Shown: in pieces, positions 36,536-41,043 of the stretch
Layout of the letters: each line of letters begins with the position of its first letter
How positions within the stretch are numbered: position 1 is the stretch's first letter
From: Escherichia coli
GTDB lineage: Bacteria > Pseudomonadota > Gammaproteobacteria > Enterobacterales > Enterobacteriaceae
Strand: one strand, 5' to 3'
Length of the DNA stretch: 64,000 nt
Assembly: GCF_044647545.1 (NCBI RefSeq)
Contig: NZ_CP172818.1
The notes under the pieces: generated by a model
What the model was told of the DNA's origin: nothing
Databases searched by the model: none
Seen by the model: only the letters and a program-made list of their open reading frames with translations
Position numbers and translations under genes: made by a program

Positions 36536-36994
36536 ATGACAATCACGGACCTGGTACTGATTCTTTTCATCGCCGCACTCCTGGCCTTCGCGATCTACGA
36601 TCAGTTCATCATGCCCCGCCGTAACGGCCCCACTCTGCTGGCAATTCCTTTGCTCCGGCGTGGTCGCATCGATAGCGTTATCTTCGTCGGATTGATTGTC
36701 ATTCTTATCTATAACAACGTCACGAATCATGGCGCGCTAATAACAACATGGTTATTAAGTGCACTGGCTCTGATGGGTTTTTATATATTCTGGATCCGCG
36801 TTCCGAAGATCATCTTTAAACAAAAAGGTTTTTTCTTCGCCAATGTCTGGATTGAATATAGCCGAATCAAAGCGATGAACTTGTCGGAAGATGGCGTGTT
36901 GGTGATGCAATTAGAACAGCGTCGGCTGTTAATCCGCGTTCGAAATATCGACGATCTGGAAAAAATTTATAAGCTTCTCGTTTCAACTCAATAG
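36536..36994 (+). CDS. yobD: UPF0266 membrane protein YobD
   Basis: 152-aa ORF with TM helices. Confidence 0.85.
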
Positions 36995-37194
36995 GTTATG
37001 AATTTAGCCAAAGCTATGTTTAGTGTATTTTTAATAATCAGACATAGCTTAGGCTATATTACCTCTTCCCTTATTTGTTATTTATTTTAACGTTTCATTG
37101 ATATATAAATCTAAATGAAAATCGTTATCAATAAAGCAATGAAATAATATATTCCAACAGTTGTTTTATATTCTCAAAATATGTTAAGGTTGCG

Positions 37195-37330
37195 CCCTCA
37201 TTTGGGGAGTAGCCGATTTCCAGATTCCGGAAATGTACGTGTCAACATACTCGTTGCAAAACGTGGCACGTACGGACTGAACACTTTCAGTCAGGCGAGA
37301 CCATATGCACATCAATCGCTATGCCTGCAT
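37195..37330 (+). promoter_or_regulatory. yybP-ykoY-type Mn(2+) riboswitch in the mntP leader (approximate bounds)
   Basis: Long structured leader with conserved-looking blocks TTGGGGAGTAGCCG (37201-37214) and CAGGCGAGACC (37291-37301) about 120-220 nt upstream of the mntP ATG. Confidence 0.5.
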
Positions 37331-37423
37331 GAACGCGAAAACCCATCGCGGCTTGTTGTTCATGTATGCATGTTTGCTGGGGGCGATGATGTGTTTTATG
37401 GATACCCCGGTCAGGACGTTGTC

Positions 37424-37990
37424 ATGAATATCACTGCTACTGTTCTTCTTGCGTTTGGTATGTCGATGGATGCATTTGCTGCATCAATCGGTAAAGGTGC
37501 CACCCTCCATAAACCGAAATTTTCTGAAGCGTTGCGAACCGGCCTTATTTTTGGTGCCGTCGAAACCCTGACGCCGCTGATCGGCTGGGGAATGGGCATG
37601 TTAGCCAGCCGGTTTGTCCTTGAATGGAACCACTGGATTGCGTTTGTGCTGCTGATATTTCTCGGCGGGCGAATGATTATTGAGGGTTTTCGTGGCGCAG
37701 ATGATGAAGATGAAGAACCGCGCCGTCGACACGGTTTTTGGTTACTGGTAACCACTGCGATTGCCACCAGCCTGGATGCCATGGCTGTGGGTGTTGGTCT
37801 TGCTTTCCTTCAGGTCAACATTATCGCGACCGCATTGGCCATTGGTTGTGCAACCTTGATTATGTCGACATTAGGGATGATGGTAGGTCGCTTTATCGGC
37901 TCAATTATTGGGAAAAAAGCGGAAATTCTCGGCGGGCTGGTGCTGATCGGCATCGGCGTCCAGATCCTCTGGACGCACTTCCACGGTTAA
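37424..37990 (+). CDS. mntP: Mn(2+) efflux pump MntP
   Basis: ATG at 37424 gives 188 aa ([18 protein letters not shown]...); ORF track start 37181 is an in-frame extension through the leader. Confidence 0.9.
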
Positions 37991-38796
37991 TAAGAACGCT
38001 GCCAGAGGTGAATATTAAAGTCCGTCTGGCAGTCGAACACTTCTTTTGCTGCCAGTGTTTGCCAGACTTCTGGCTTCGCACGCCAGGCAAACGGCGTCAT
38101 CTGCAATAATGCGACGGCTTCGTCACCGCGAAGACGCATCGGATAACACAACTCATCACTCTGCTGTAATGTAAAACCTTCCAGTTGTTCTGCATGTGGT
38201 GCATGAAGATGTACTTCATTGTAAATCAGCCCCTTCAGCTCCATCAAATGTCGCGGTCCCGGCGTGGCAGTAATGACCCAACCGCCAGGCTTCACTACGC
38301 GCGCTAATTCTTCTGCTTTACACGGCGCGTAAATACGTATTATGGCGTCCATACTGGTATCGGAAAACGGCAAACGGTGGCTGGAAGCAACACAAAAAGT
38401 GACCTGCGGATAGCGTTTCGCCGCCGCTTTTATCGCTACCTTCGAGACATCCAGACCAAACGTGGTGATTTCGGGCAGCGCATCGGCAAATGCGTGTGTG
38501 TAATACCCTTCACCACAGCCAATATCCAGCACCGCCGTGGCCTTTTCATCAAGCCGTTCCCGCAGTTGGGCGACAATTGCATCACGCAGCGGCTGATAAT
38601 GTCCGGCATCTAAGAATGCGCGGCGTGCTTGCATCATTTCCGCGCTGTCGCCCGGATCACGAGACCGTTTATGCTGAACGGGCAGCAGATTGACATACCC
38701 TTCTTTCGCCATATCAAACTGATGTCGCAGGGGACAGATATAGCTGTTTTTTTCACGCGAAAGAGGCTGATGGCAAAGTGGACAGGAAAACGACAT
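37987..38796 (-). CDS. rlmA: 23S rRNA m1G745 methyltransferase
   Basis: 269-aa ORF with N-terminal Zn-binding Cys cluster and SAM-methyltransferase motif ([11 protein letters not shown]). Confidence 0.9.
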
Positions 38797-38889
38797 GACA
38801 ACTCCGGCAGGATACTAAAGGCCGCAAGTGTAACGCGAATCACGCGGCGGGCAAATATCCGAACGCCTGGAGCGAAGATAAAGCAAAGT

Positions 38890-38916
38890 AAAAAGCCTCG
38901 CATTCGGCGAGGCTTT
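38890..38916 (-). terminator. Rho-independent terminator after cspC
   Basis: Minus strand reads GCCTCGCCGAATGCGAGGC followed by a T run. Confidence 0.6.
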
Positions 38917-38961
38917 ATAGCGAGATTGAAGCGTATTCACACTTCAGATCAGTGGATTCGA

Positions 38962-39171
38962 TCAGATAGCTGTTACGTTAACAGCTGCCGGACCTTTCTG
39001 GCCGTCCTGAATTTCGAACTCAACGTTCTGACCTTCAGCCAGAGTTTTGAAGCCATTACCCTGGATAGCGGAGAAGTGTACGAACACGTCTTTGCTGCCA
39101 TCAGCCGGAGTAATGAAGCCAAAACCTTTAGACTCGTTGAACCACTTAACCTGACCTTTAATCTTTGCCAT
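38962..39171 (-). CDS. cspC: Cold-shock-domain protein CspC
   Basis: 69-aa [23 protein letters not shown]... with RNP1/RNP2 motifs. Confidence 0.95.
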
Positions 39172-39183
39172 TTGAAAAATTCC

Positions 39184-39327
39184 TTAGATTGTTTTCTTCG
39201 CCCGCAGGCATAACATAGATAAAACTGACACATTACTGCATGAGGCACCAATATAAGGCTCGGCAGAGAAGCGGTATTCAACGTCAACGTGTTTACTCAG
39301 GACTTCTTTACTGAAAATGCCACACAT
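39184..39327 (-). CDS. yobF: Small protein YobF (47 aa), co-oriented just upstream of cspC
   Basis: Hand-translated: [47 protein letters not shown]. Confidence 0.65.
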
Positions 39328-39996
39328 AAACAGAACTGTACCTCGTTTAACCCGAAATCTGTTATCACATACAACGTTAATTATGGCAAGCCATTTTTAA
39401 ACATGTCTCGATCAGACGCACAAATCTCGATACGTCTTCCACTTTTTTTGCACACTTATGCAACGGAATACGCGCCGATATATCATTGTGCTTAACCTTG
39501 CCAGTTCAGGCAGATACTTAAACTGACGTATTTTCTAACATAGTTCAATAAGTTCAGTTGTTCCAGGCCAGTGGGAGAAGTTATTACATAGTGCGTGCAA
39601 TATCACATTTTCTGCTATGCAATGAATAAAAAGTTATATCACTTTTTCTCATAAAACAGTCAGTTAACGGCCACCAATTACCCCAAAGAGAAGTCAATCC
39701 CCAATGGTATTGTAAATTTAAAATAAGAAAAATTGATGAATGCGCAAAAAAATCAAGAGAGAAACGTTTCGCTAATAAATAATACCATGCTTAATCACAA
39801 ATCCGATGTAAACATCCTAATAAATTAATGGGCTAAATATCTTTTTCTGATATCCCGTTACGCAAATAAATAATATGATAATTATTTGAAGTCAGACCAG
39901 AGTTTTAATTTGAAGCAGTTGCACCATGACAGTGCGTATAATCAGGATGAATTGAGTAACCCTTCAACGACGGGGTTACTCAAGATTGAGGAAGGA

Positions 39997-40284
39997 TTAT
40001 CGTTCGGCGACCAGACGAATAATATCTTCGTCTTCAACCGATTTTTGACTCTCAACGGTCTTTTTATCTGCTTTCTCAGGTTCGTTTGCTTCGCACAAAC
40101 GACGTAACAGAGCATTTTGACGTTTTTGCTGATCCAGCAACGCCTCAAGCAGTTCAATCTGTTCGTTAGTCCGTGAACTGGCACGATTGATAAAAAACCA
40201 CAAGATAAGCCCGATAAAAAGAACCACCACCGATACAACCAAAGACGCAATGTTCATCACGCCTGAATTTACAACTTCGTTCAT
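39997..40284 (-). CDS. yebO: Small membrane protein YebO
   Basis: 95-aa ORF with N-terminal TM helix and charged coiled-coil-like tail. Confidence 0.8.
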   Translation of the reverse strand: MNEVVNSGVMNIASLVVSVVVLFIGLILWFFINRASSRTNEQIELLEALLDQQKRQNALLRRLCEANEPEKADKKTVESQKSVEDEDIIRLVAER

Positions 40285-40358
40285 TTCACCACCTCTGAGT
40301 AGAGGCGCTATTCTACCACTGCTGGAGAGGAAGAAAATCTAGTGCTGAAAAAATGATA

Positions 40359-40502
40359 TCACCACGGGATAAACTGGTTAATGGCACAAATTCCGCTGAA
40401 AAATTGTACATCCTGATCGCACATCATGTTGAATACCTGCGCCCAAAGCAGCAAGCAAGCCAACACCACGACAACCAGAACGACCCATCGAAACTTTTTC
40501 AC
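40359..40502 (-). CDS. mgrB: PhoQ-inhibiting small membrane protein MgrB (47 aa)
   Basis: Hand-translated from a GTG start with GGAG SD: [47 protein letters not shown]; below ORF-track cut-off. Confidence 0.8.
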
Positions 40503-40660
40503 TCCAATCTCCGTTTCACCTACCTTATGTCATTAAACTAGCATGCGTTAGTTAAACAGCGCCTAACTATGTCGATATTCGTGCTTTTTCAGAATGAGTC
40601 GCTTGCTTCAGCGCATATTGCCGCTACGATTAAGCGAACATAAAAAGAGAAGAGGTTGTA

Positions 40661-40900
40661 ATGCGATTCATCATTCGCACAGTTATGCTGATAGCACTGG
40701 TATGGATAGGATTATTACTCAGCGGATATGGCGTTTTGATTGGAAGCAAAGAGAATGCCGCGGGATTAGGTTTGCAATGTACCTATCTGACCGCCAGAGG
40801 CACCAGCACGGTACAATACCTGCACACTAAAAGTGGTTTTCTGGGGATAACAGATTGCCCGTTGTTACGTAAAAGCAATATTGTGGTCGATAATGGTTAA
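40661..40900 (+). CDS. yobH: Small membrane protein YobH
   Basis: 79-aa ORF with signal/TM segment. Confidence 0.8.
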   Translation: MRFIIRTVMLIALVWIGLLLSGYGVLIGSKENAAGLGLQCTYLTARGTSTVQYLHTKSGFLGITDCPLLRKSNIVVDNG

Positions 40901-41043
40901 GGGTAATAAATAACCAGATTCTCACTCATGAGTAAAATATTCTTATCGCAAGTGCGTTTAATATAACGCCACCTTCAACTTTATTTTTCTCATGCTAAAT
41001 AAAGAACCTGTCTGTTTGATATTCAGACAGGTTCTTACTCTCA

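Follow-up and report, generated by a model that had tools for sequence, protein, structure and literature searches.

The 669-bp spacer between yobF and yebO in Escherichia coli very probably serves the yobF-cspC operon as an extended control region, is joined to the 3' end of the mgrB-yebO transcript, and encodes no protein. It is a composite regulatory spacer and not a single element. Read in the direction of transcription, the arrangement that we propose begins with a hairpin at which mgrB-yebO transcripts would mostly end (39948/9), with some reading through the spacer into yobF-cspC. Next would come about 150 bp of AT-rich filler, with conservation confined to Escherichia, in a spacer that binds H-NS and RNA polymerase in vitro, and then short conserved motifs that are candidates for protein binding, including a ribose-repressor-type operator and a CRP-like site. 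Transcripts from a distal promoter would start at 39529 and carry a 202-nt leader that crosses the proximal promoters; many of them would end at 39452 in minimal medium. Two overlapping extended -10 promoters in a 100-bp block conserved family-wide would provide the main start at 39351-54, and the resulting 26-nt leader would be the target of OxyS and CyaR. The coordinates of all features are collected in Table 1.

Table 1. Features of the yobF-yebO spacer and its surroundings, in window coordinates
Feature	Position	Strand	Description
yobF-yebO spacer	39328-39996		669 bp; flanked by minus-strand genes
Plus-strand ORF	39289..39495	+	68 aa, GTG start
Plus-strand ORF	39886..40107	+	73 aa, TTG start
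mgrB-yebO terminator hairpin	39952..39983	-	11-bp stem, TTGAGTAACCC/GGGTTACTCAA
AT-rich stretch	39802..39947		~30% GC; conservation limited to Escherichia
Island A	39700..39800	-	family consensus ..TTTTATTTTTA(T/G)CGAAACGTTTT..TTGCCT..AGGCA..GTCAT..TTTCATTATTTT
Extended -10-like element	39779..39787	-	TGgTATTAT, 5 nt upstream of operator; hypothetical promoter element
Candidate LacI-family operator	39758..39773		16-bp palindrome AGCGAAACGTTTCTCT, central CG
CRP-like site	39592..39607		TGTGATATTGCACGCA on minus strand; low confidence
Distal yobF promoter	39537..39565	-	TGGAAC (39565-39560), 17 nt, TATGTT (39542-39537)
Distal TSS	39529..39529	-	202-nt yobF leader; 8 nt past -10 hexamer
Putative 5' leader fragment	39452..39529	-	78 nt; from distal TSS to orphan 3' end (..GCAUAAGUGU)
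Conserved leader motifs	39450..39484		palindrome GATATATC (39477-39484) and GCATAAGTGTGC (39450-39461)
Proximal conserved block	39328..39425	-	two overlapping promoters and short leader
Proximal promoter 2	39409..39380	-	GAGACA (39409-04), 18 nt, TGcCATAAT (39388-80); start near 39375
Proximal promoter 1	39389..39361	-	TTGCCA (39389-84), 17 nt, TGtGATAAC (39369-61); TSS 39351-54
Short yobF 5' UTR	39328..39354	-	26-nt leader; Shine-Dalgarno GAGG (39344-39341)
yobF-cspC mRNA	38887..39347	-	full-length cspA mRNA homologue, Rfam RF01766

Composition and coding content of the spacer

Positions are those of the window, the whole 64-kb stretch of E. coli DNA that was analyzed; K-12 coordinates were converted by subtracting 1,868,264 (NC_000913.3) or 1,866,288 (version 2). 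The spacer is bounded by two minus-strand features, the ATG of yobF at 39327 and the stop codon of yebO at 39997-39999, and by Pfam the flanking products belong to DUF2527/2627 (YobF) and PF13974 (YebO). The sequence-only reading had described an AT-rich gap of 670 bp between yobF-cspC and yebO. Such a gap is present, with a measured length of 669 bp and a GC content of 35.6% versus 49.6% for the whole window, falling to a minimum of about 28-30% at 39700-39900. The phased A/T tracts of that reading did not hold up: the spacer has 12 runs of at least four A or T, and its AA/TT power at periods of 10-11.5 bp was reached or exceeded in 350 of 1,000 first-order Markov shuffles. Compared with K-12, the spacer shows 11 SNPs and no indels. 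It is single-copy in 5,423 of 5,426 complete E. coli genomes and carries no annotation in K-12 RefSeq, in the identical strain FDAARGOS_497, or across more than 5,400 E. coli genomes. Separately, an in vitro sigma-S run-off signal designated IG1905616_1906284-f may represent a plus-strand transcript, depending on the strand convention of the array, and is left out of the evidence used here.

The integrity of two large and five smaller ORFs was followed in three sister Escherichia species. In two of the three (loci L003 and L005), frameshifts or stop codons break all seven, which lie within or overlap the spacer, and neither of the large plus-strand ORFs (68 aa and 73 aa) matched a Pfam family. 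The protein-coding reading was rejected, and because the ORFs are broken and lack Pfam matches, the earlier statement that the spacer contains no credible ORF stands.

The 3' end of mgrB-yebO and the AT-rich stretch

The hairpin next to yebO has a predicted folding energy of -15.5 kcal/mol (RNAfold), and other Escherichia have a hairpin at the same position. Term-seq places 3' ends of the class "primary, yebO" at K-12 1908212/3, that is, 39948/39949; they occur in all three Term-seq conditions and lie 3 to 4 nt past the stem. The tail of the terminator (UUCAUCCUGAUU) has a weak U tract, which is why a consensus terminator scan did not call the hairpin. A read-through yebO-yobF-cspC transcript is listed in the SMRT-Cappable-seq data.

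The AT-rich stretch (39802-39947) has an identity of only 0.15-0.40 to Salmonella, Citrobacter, and Klebsiella and contains several promoter-like hexamers, none with a mapped start. Genomic SELEX in vitro located an H-NS site somewhere in the spacer (Shimada et al. 2014), and the same study reported several RpoD-holoenzyme peaks "within 670 bp spacer," naming the yobF spacer as a multi-peak example beside the 847-bp cydA spacer (mngB-cydA). With respect to H-NS, the region has a GC content of 30-36%, the spacer holds the in vitro SELEX site, and the helical phasing of the A tracts is not significant; we came across no in vivo report of occupancy or silencing.

Across the Enterobacteriaceae, the islands upstream of yobF are conserved, and from about -218 down to the yobF ATG their spacing is almost constant; in the same loci, a non-regulatory spacer varies in length from 35 to 331 nt. 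In 30 of 80 loci, a 331-aa metallo-beta-lactamase-fold (MBL-fold) gene is situated between yebO and the yobF upstream region; the genera concerned include Lelliottia, Enterobacter, Kosakonia, Buttiauxella, Cedecea, Leclercia, Phytobacter, and Huaxiibacter. The presence of this gene at the same position raises the idea that the E. coli spacer is what is left of a gene that decayed here, and two Enterobacter loci with short spacers (L050 and L074) do show a weak similarity to its C terminus (E = 2.3 and 0.35, neither significant). However, tblastn searches with two MBL-fold orthologues gave no match in the E. coli window up to an E value of 10, and in the gene-bearing genomes the gene is still followed by about 520 bp of non-coding DNA that carries the same islands. 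A scar could account for no more than about 150 bp of the spacer in E. coli (39802-39947). We regard descent of the spacer from a lost gene as highly improbable.

The proximal promoters and the cspA-type mRNA

The block adjoining yobF is 88-95% identical across the family, downstream genes counted in, and conservation ends sharply at about 39425 in 75 or more loci. Its main start, at 39353, appears in the data of Kim et al. 2012, as a sigma-S ChIP-seq peak, and in tagRNA-seq (1907615-18), and the yobF-cspC transcript of SMRT-Cappable-seq extends from 1907617 to 1907153. The promoter call of Shimada et al. 2014 was TTGCCA-17-GATAAC. As regards the second, overlapping promoter, a Salmonella yobF::sfgfp fusion begins at the base equivalent to 39375. 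An RpoN/NtrC SELEX peak at 1,905,652 would fall at about 39364 if it follows version-2 numbering. The short leader is the reported pairing region of two small RNAs: OxyS represses yobF near the Shine-Dalgarno sequence (PMC10965054), and CyaR targets yobF as well as mgrB-yebO (PMC5861431). Downstream from the spacer, Term-seq 3' ends are found at 39215 and 38889.

The match of the yobF-cspC mRNA to the cspA model of Rfam (RF01766) scores 137.6 bits, the gathering score being 78, and spans model positions 1-428, with only its first 20 nt inside the interval; the downstream mRNA is thus a member of the family, and the interval is not. A full-length match of the transcript that begins at the proximal promoter implies that cspC has a cspA-type leader of about 180 nt. 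This thermoregulator-type leader corresponds to 39172-39353, a stretch taken up by the yobF ORF, and the rest of the interval is dissimilar to it. The idea of a long leader of the cold-shock type is therefore right for the yobF-cspC mRNA but not for the interval, almost wholly outside of which the match (39347..38887) lies. Searching Rfam, likewise, identified RF01766 for the mRNA and only noise inside the interval beyond those 20 nt: at the gathering threshold, the whole window yielded nothing in the spacer upstream of the cspA-model match, and the spacer matches in a permissive search of 38500-41000 were at noise level (psRNA2, 15.6 bits; a plant snoRNA, 22 bits).

The distal promoter and its leader

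The -35 hexamer of the distal promoter agrees with the consensus at three of six positions and the -10 hexamer at four of six, including the key A2 and T6. A C directly precedes the -10 hexamer; a C at this place is a feature that favors sigma-S. Of 16 aligned species, 15 retain the -10 hexamer, which stands 216-218 nt from the yobF ATG in 40 of 55 loci. It was picked by conservation before the published start was found: Kim et al. 2012 (supplementary file 2) list a distal TSS at 1905817 (version 2) with 107 reads versus 249 for the proximal one, and the 50 nt that they print upstream from it match the predicted promoter exactly. The distal TSS of Salmonella is bounded to 181-390 nt upstream of yobF, and TSS 1893683 of Salmonella 4/74, together with Tn5 positions, fits -203. 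The proximal start is the only yobF TSS in SMRT-Cappable-seq and the only one mentioned for tagRNA-seq, which suggests that the distal promoter is weaker or condition-dependent; the supplements of ROSE, tagRNA-seq, and Cappable-seq have no entries for the spacer region.

Upstream from the distal promoter, the low-confidence CRP-like site is centered at -70.5 relative to the distal TSS and has two mismatches to TGTGA-N6-TCACA. Matches of this quality are no commoner in the window than chance predicts (19 found versus 26.8 expected), and the half-site AAA(A/T)GTGATAT is kept in Escherichia, Salmonella, and some Citrobacter. A sigma-54 promoter at island C was considered and rejected by eye, as CTGGAA..TTATTG does not fit the -24/-12 spacing.

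Term-seq by Adams et al. 2021 detected a 3' end at K-12 1907716 on the minus strand, corresponding to 39452, in M63 glucose only. It lies 125 nt upstream of yobF and is represented by 264,852 reads, about six-fold the 46,490 reads of the yebO terminator in the same M63 glucose sample. We infer that this end and the distal TSS belong to one RNA of 78 nt. Adams et al. 2021 listed the end among those situated at most 200 nt upstream of an ORF; it has no intrinsic terminator. Neither the terminator scan nor folding revealed a hairpin-plus-U tract at 39452. Our preferred reading, drawn from distances only, is that polymerase coming from the distal promoter would stop against a complex bound at the proximal promoters.

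The same RNA might be regarded as the product of an independent gene for a trans-acting sRNA of about 78 nt, from 39529 to 39452. It would have its own mapped TSS and a strong 3' end specific to M63 glucose, with about six-fold the signal at the yebO terminator, and the 5'-most 50 nt of the distal leader show a weak trend toward better folding than shuffles (mean z of -0.69 in 56 species). Such a gene is nevertheless unlikely. The 39452 end lacks a hairpin and U tract; the 91-nt fold of E. coli (z of -1.17) is no better than its shuffles; the sequence that runs from the distal promoter to the GCATAA motif is scrambled among genera, with no covarying pairs; and no Rfam family matches. Moreover, the same TSS gives rise to a 202-nt mRNA leader in both E. 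coli and Salmonella, so that the 78-nt fragment is more simply explained as a by-product of the leader. A yebO-yobF intergenic RNA was not named in the literature that we searched.

Could the 202-nt leader instead be a structured sensing RNA (a riboswitch, thermometer, or attenuator) that gates read-through into yobF-cspC, with the 39452 end as its "off" product? The leader has a nearly fixed length across genera, its internal 3' end is condition-dependent, and cspA-family mRNAs are temperature-sensing RNAs (Rfam RF01766). Yet RNAalifold, run on 52 sequences covering -500..-1, predicted neither a structure upstream of -110 nor compensatory pairs, and on 44 sequences covering -210..-100 it gave four pairs, none of them compensatory. 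The GCAU/GUGC stem never varies and hence offers no evidence for RNA pairing. The leader also lacks an intrinsic terminator at 39452 and an Rfam match. What is conserved is a set of short blocks: in 49 of 58 loci, the distance from GCATAAnKGTGC to the ATG is 134 nt, and of the 27 loci with a match to the pattern of GATATATC, 22 have it 155-157 nt from the ATG. Short blocks of this kind, DNA palindromes such as GATATATC among them, set in scrambled sequence are the pattern of protein-binding DNA, and the leader's downstream half owes its conservation to being the proximal promoter. We consider a sensing leader very unlikely and favor the stopping of distal-promoter polymerase described above.

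Island A and a candidate ribose-repressor operator

Island A is marked by GAAACGTTT, which was found in 69 of 76 Enterobacteriaceae spacers at a median distance of 453 nt from the yobF ATG (interquartile range, 430-460); one of the 69 matches (locus L022, at -583) falls inside the MBL-fold gene and outside the module. Where the MBL-fold gene is present, island A follows its stop codon by about 60 nt. Within the island, the palindrome AGCGAAACGTTTCTCT is identical at 15 of 16 bases to the rbsO core AGCGAAACGTTTCGCT, for which bioRxiv 2025.04.02.646877 and the K-12 rbsD promoter served as the reference. This match is the sole one in the 64-kb window, and by our own calculation so close a match is expected by chance about 0.1 times per E. 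coli genome. The operator is intact in K-12, and the 46-nt stretch around it is present in 5,113 E. coli genomes. Its core CGAAACGTTTC is invariant in all Escherichia, Salmonella, and Citrobacter spacers, in which the flanks diverge. Compared by hand with consensus sequences, the operator matched Cra at 10 and PurR at 11 of 16 positions; PurR, Cra, MalI, KdgR, GalR, and CytR, judged in this way, all fit island A less well than RbsR.

Going by this resemblance, 39758-39773 might be a working site for RbsR or another LacI-family protein, which could serve a third, ribose-responsive promoter toward yobF or could counter silencing by H-NS; we hold this as a tentative and rather doubtful possibility. 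It is compatible with the control-region explanation, to which it adds one input. In its favor are the closeness and rarity of the match and the invariance of its core amid diverging flanks. The likeness to the rbsDACBK promoter extends from the 15 shared positions of a 16-bp palindrome to an AT-rich -10-like hexamer just upstream in E. coli, with TGgTATTAT 5 nt upstream of the spacer site and TAAACT 7 nt before rbsO in the rbsD promoter. Fast growth on succinate, furthermore, is common to the rbsR and cspC mutants of Salmonella. Several observations point the other way. Kim et al. 2012 list no TSS beside the operator or the -10-like element, the nearest mapped start being about 230 bp away, and the -10-like hexamer is kept in just 3 of 16 aligned species. 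In contrast to rbsD, which has a class I CRP site at -61.5, the spacer operator has no such site, no mapped start, and no gene for sugar metabolism downstream. The right half-site degenerates beyond Escherichia, Salmonella, and Citrobacter; in most other genera it reads GTTTTTAT or GTTTTGCT, which reduces the rbsO match to 12 of 16, so the element conserved family-wide may be something other than an RbsR site. The Salmonella study attributes the rbsR effect to RpoS, citing an rbsD-mRNA mechanism; it found RpoS lowered in the rbsR mutant and unaltered in the cspC mutant. Our search of the literature found no report of RbsR binding at the yobF locus and no list of RbsR SELEX targets. Were the site functional, the RNA chaperone CspC would come under a sugar repressor, tying ribose sensing to CspC levels, and the fast growth on succinate shared by the Salmonella rbsR and cspC mutants would have a direct explanation.

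Discussion

Published maps show the opposite of an interval served by one proximal promoter and free of other transcript ends: starts lie at 39353 and 39529, and 3' ends lie at 39948/9 and 39452. The two starts, which give yobF leaders of 26 nt and 202 nt (Kim et al. 2012), the distal TSS of Salmonella, and the 3' ends at 39452 and at yebO together establish multiple promoters and a long leader. The interpretation offered by the sequence-only reading, that the interval may hold a long 5' UTR, multiple promoters, or an unannotated sRNA, is thereby supported in its first two parts; of a separate sRNA, a 78-nt leader fragment is all that the mapped ends suggest. In the proposed check across the Enterobacteriaceae, both the proximal block and the upstream islands proved to be conserved.

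The main features of the region are ordinary and largely documented in public data sets. Our additions are the conserved upstream islands, the rbsO-like match, the finding of no covarying RNA structure, and the MBL-fold gene at this position in other genera. The value added lies in one coordinate map that unites scattered published data and in a short list of specific sites; the understanding of such regions is unchanged by these results.

An apparently empty stretch of 669 bp is thus a layered control region: it has two mapped starts, one of its leaders ends prematurely in minimal medium, and it carries motifs conserved in many genera. CspC is a global RNA chaperone whose loss is repeatedly selected in aging E. 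coli colonies and in Salmonella on succinate, and for this reason the control of the yobF-cspC operon is of practical interest.

Results and Discussion

The gene-free interval between yebO and yobF is a composite noncoding regulatory spacer, and the core facts about it are already present in published data sets. Over the 901 bases compared (39200-40100), the window matches strain FDAARGOS_497 at 100% identity, and its cspC-mgrB stretch is colinear with K-12 except for SNPs. Neither K-12 RefSeq nor the identical strain FDAARGOS_497 has an annotated feature in the gap, and none lay under a 46-nt probe from it across 5,113 genomes. Its GC content is 35.6% versus 49.6% for the window. The sequence-only reading had found no credible ORF here, and its observation stands overall: of three sister Escherichia species examined, two have disruptions in the ORFs, including the two large ones it listed, and neither large ORF matched a Pfam family. 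The phased A/T tracts it described did not hold up, their power being reached by 350 of 1,000 shuffles. In comparison locus L002 (NZ_CP033850.1), PGAP labels positions 2763-2972 (window 38962-39171) cspE ("transcription antiterminator/RNA stability regulator CspE"); by tblastn its product shares 100% identity with K-12 CspC. The locus is that of cspC, and the label is a paralogue naming slip.

Features of the yebO-yobF spacer and its surroundings (window coordinates unless a locus is named)
Feature	Position	Strand	Details	Source
mgrB	40359-40502	minus		
yebO	39997-40284	minus		
Gap	39328-39996		669 bp, between yebO and yobF	
yobF	39184-39327	minus		
cspC	38962-39171	minus	rlmA next	
yebO terminator 3' end	39948/9			Term-seq
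Island A	39700-39800		core CGAAACGTTT	
Candidate operator	39758-39773		AGCGAAACGTTTCTCT	
Island B	about 39590-39640			
Island C	39537-39566		CTGGAA..GAACTTATTGAaCTATGkT	
Distal yobF start	39529		202-nt leader, 107 reads	Kim 2012
Motif	39477-39484		GATATATC	
Orphan 3' end	39452		M63 glucose only	Term-seq
Motif	39450-39461		GCATAAnTGTGC	
Proximal yobF start	39353		26-nt leader, 249 reads	Kim 2012
3' end within yobF	39215			Term-seq
cspC terminator 3' end	38889			Term-seq
Metallo-beta-lactamase-fold gene	L010 4308-5303		also L012, L016-L019, L022, L023, L025, L027, others	

Because no indels separate K-12 from the window in the gap, published K-12 coordinates transfer directly. The starts and ends that they place within the gap support the earlier proposal of a long 5' UTR, multiple promoters, or an unannotated sRNA. 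The proximal start was also seen by tagRNA-seq, in a sigma-S ChIP-seq study, and by SMRT-Cappable-seq as a full-length transcript (1907617 to 1907153); the SMRT-Cappable-seq table also has a read-through yebO-yobF-cspC transcript. The distal promoter consists of TATGTT (39542-39537) with TGGAAC 17 nt upstream. TATGTT, the sole conserved -10-like hexamer of the distal gap, was chosen independently of the Kim 2012 start, and the 50 nt printed by Kim et al. upstream of that start is island C; prediction and data therefore agree. For Salmonella 4/74, the stated operon start (1893683) and three Tn5 positions constrain initiation to 181-390 nt upstream of yobF, which -203 fits. The reporter fusion used in the Salmonella study has its first base at the position corresponding to 39375, which fits a second proximal promoter, GAGACA-18-TGcCATAAT. 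Shimada et al. describe several RpoD-holoenzyme peaks in the 670-bp spacer, assign it an H-NS site, and give the yobF promoter as TTGCCA-17-GATAAC; an RpoN/NtrC SELEX peak with repressive effect in Shimada et al. 2021, at 1,905,652, would fall close to the proximal promoter under version-2 numbering. The sRNAs OxyS and CyaR are reported to act on the short yobF leader. yebO has its own start at 40303 (Kim 2012 and SMRT-Cappable-seq) besides the mgrB-yebO transcript, and Term-seq places yebO-internal 3' ends at K-12 1908368 and 1908477 and, separately, a Rho termination region at 1908371.

In the Term-seq sample where it appears, the orphan 3' end at 39452 is about sixfold stronger than the yebO terminator and so cannot derive solely from yebO read-through. 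Together with the distal start it implies a 78-nt fragment, if both ends belong to one RNA; the 202-nt leader would then often end early in minimal medium. The region of this fragment in E. coli folds no better than shuffles, and a 5' hairpin tested species by species gave only a weak trend. RNAalifold found neither compensatory pairs nor conserved structure beyond the invariant proximal block in 44 distal-leader sequences or in 52 sequences covering the whole 500 nt upstream. In Rfam, the search suggested with the earlier proposal, the sole match was the cspA model, running from 39347 down the entire yobF-cspC mRNA (38887-39347, minus). This match explains the long, cold-shock-type leader of cspC, and the 47-codon yobF ORF thus occupies the counterpart of the cspA 5' UTR. 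The Term-seq end inside yobF precedes cspC by 44 nt; Kim 2012 also maps a cspC start inside yobF near 39300.

Conservation across the Enterobacteriaceae was assessed in 80 loci collected via YebO. Virtually every locus shares the block from cspC to about 39425 at 88-95% identity, and conservation ends abruptly at that edge; the remainder of the gap aligns over its whole length only within Escherichia (80-83% identity), and short islands, seen in an alignment of 17 species and in motif counts across the family, are embedded in diverged sequence. Spacing from island C to the yobF ATG is nearly fixed: its -10-like hexamer lies 216-218 nt away in 40 of 55 loci and the GCATAA motif 134 nt away in 49 of 58, compared with 35 to 331 nt for a nonregulatory 3'-3' spacer of the same loci. 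Short conserved blocks, DNA palindromes among them, with scrambled sequence in between whose length is nearly constant downstream of island C, have the look of protein-binding DNA.

One palindrome in island A matches the ribose operator (TCAGCGAAACGTTTCGCTGA, published and read directly in K-12) at 15 of 16 positions. No other such site occurs in the window. The core does not vary among Escherichia, Salmonella, and Citrobacter, and by our own calculation a genome would be expected to contain about 0.1 matches this close. The E. coli site is preceded by TGgTATTAT at a distance of 5 nt, an arrangement resembling that at rbsD, where TAAACT precedes rbsO by 7 nt. A succinate phenotype common to rbsR and cspC mutants of Salmonella is no more than suggestive; in the paper describing it, the effect of rbsR is ascribed to RpoS. 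However, Kim 2012 maps no start beside the site, about 230 bp separate it from the closest mapped promoter, and the right half-site is weaker in most other genera (12/16). The palindrome is a candidate RbsR site, and a rather unlikely one. The K-12 rbsD promoter has a second partial operator-core copy, AAAACGTTTCGA, upstream of rbsO (L083 446-460), overlapping an apparent CRP site (..GATCACATTT).

Thirty of the 80 loci have, in the space between yebO and island A, a gene for a 331- to 335-aa metallo-beta-lactamase-fold protein (Pfam Lactamase_B_2, E 8e-42), beginning about 17-20 nt past the yebO stop. It is absent from this position in Escherichia, Salmonella, Citrobacter, and Klebsiella, and E. 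coli has no trace of it. Faint C-terminal traces in two short-spacer Enterobacter loci (L050 4369-4431, E 2.3; L074 4335-4430, E 0.35; not significant) hint at loss by deletion; any scar in E. coli would be confined to the 150-bp stretch specific to Escherichia. Across loci L003-L082, cspC and rlmA are 140-170 nt apart in E. coli and its close relatives but about 2,000 nt apart in most of the remaining genera; the latter genomes therefore have extra DNA there, probably a gene.

Elsewhere in the window, an Mn2+ (yybP-ykoY) riboswitch lies upstream of mntP (37196-37292, plus; 41.9 bits, E 8e-10), a little short of the Rfam gathering score of 45, so a gathering-threshold search misses it. FDAARGOS_497 has a 40-aa "hypothetical protein" CDS just downstream, adjoining mntP (about 37305-37427). 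Positions about 36990-37072 (GC about 27%) give low-scoring matches to several microRNA hairpin models on both strands, pointing to a long inverted repeat located between yobD and the mntP leader.

In E. coli, the yebO-yobF spacer thus combines a single terminator, an AT-rich filler stretch of about 150 bp, several conserved putative binding motifs, and the distal and main proximal promoters.
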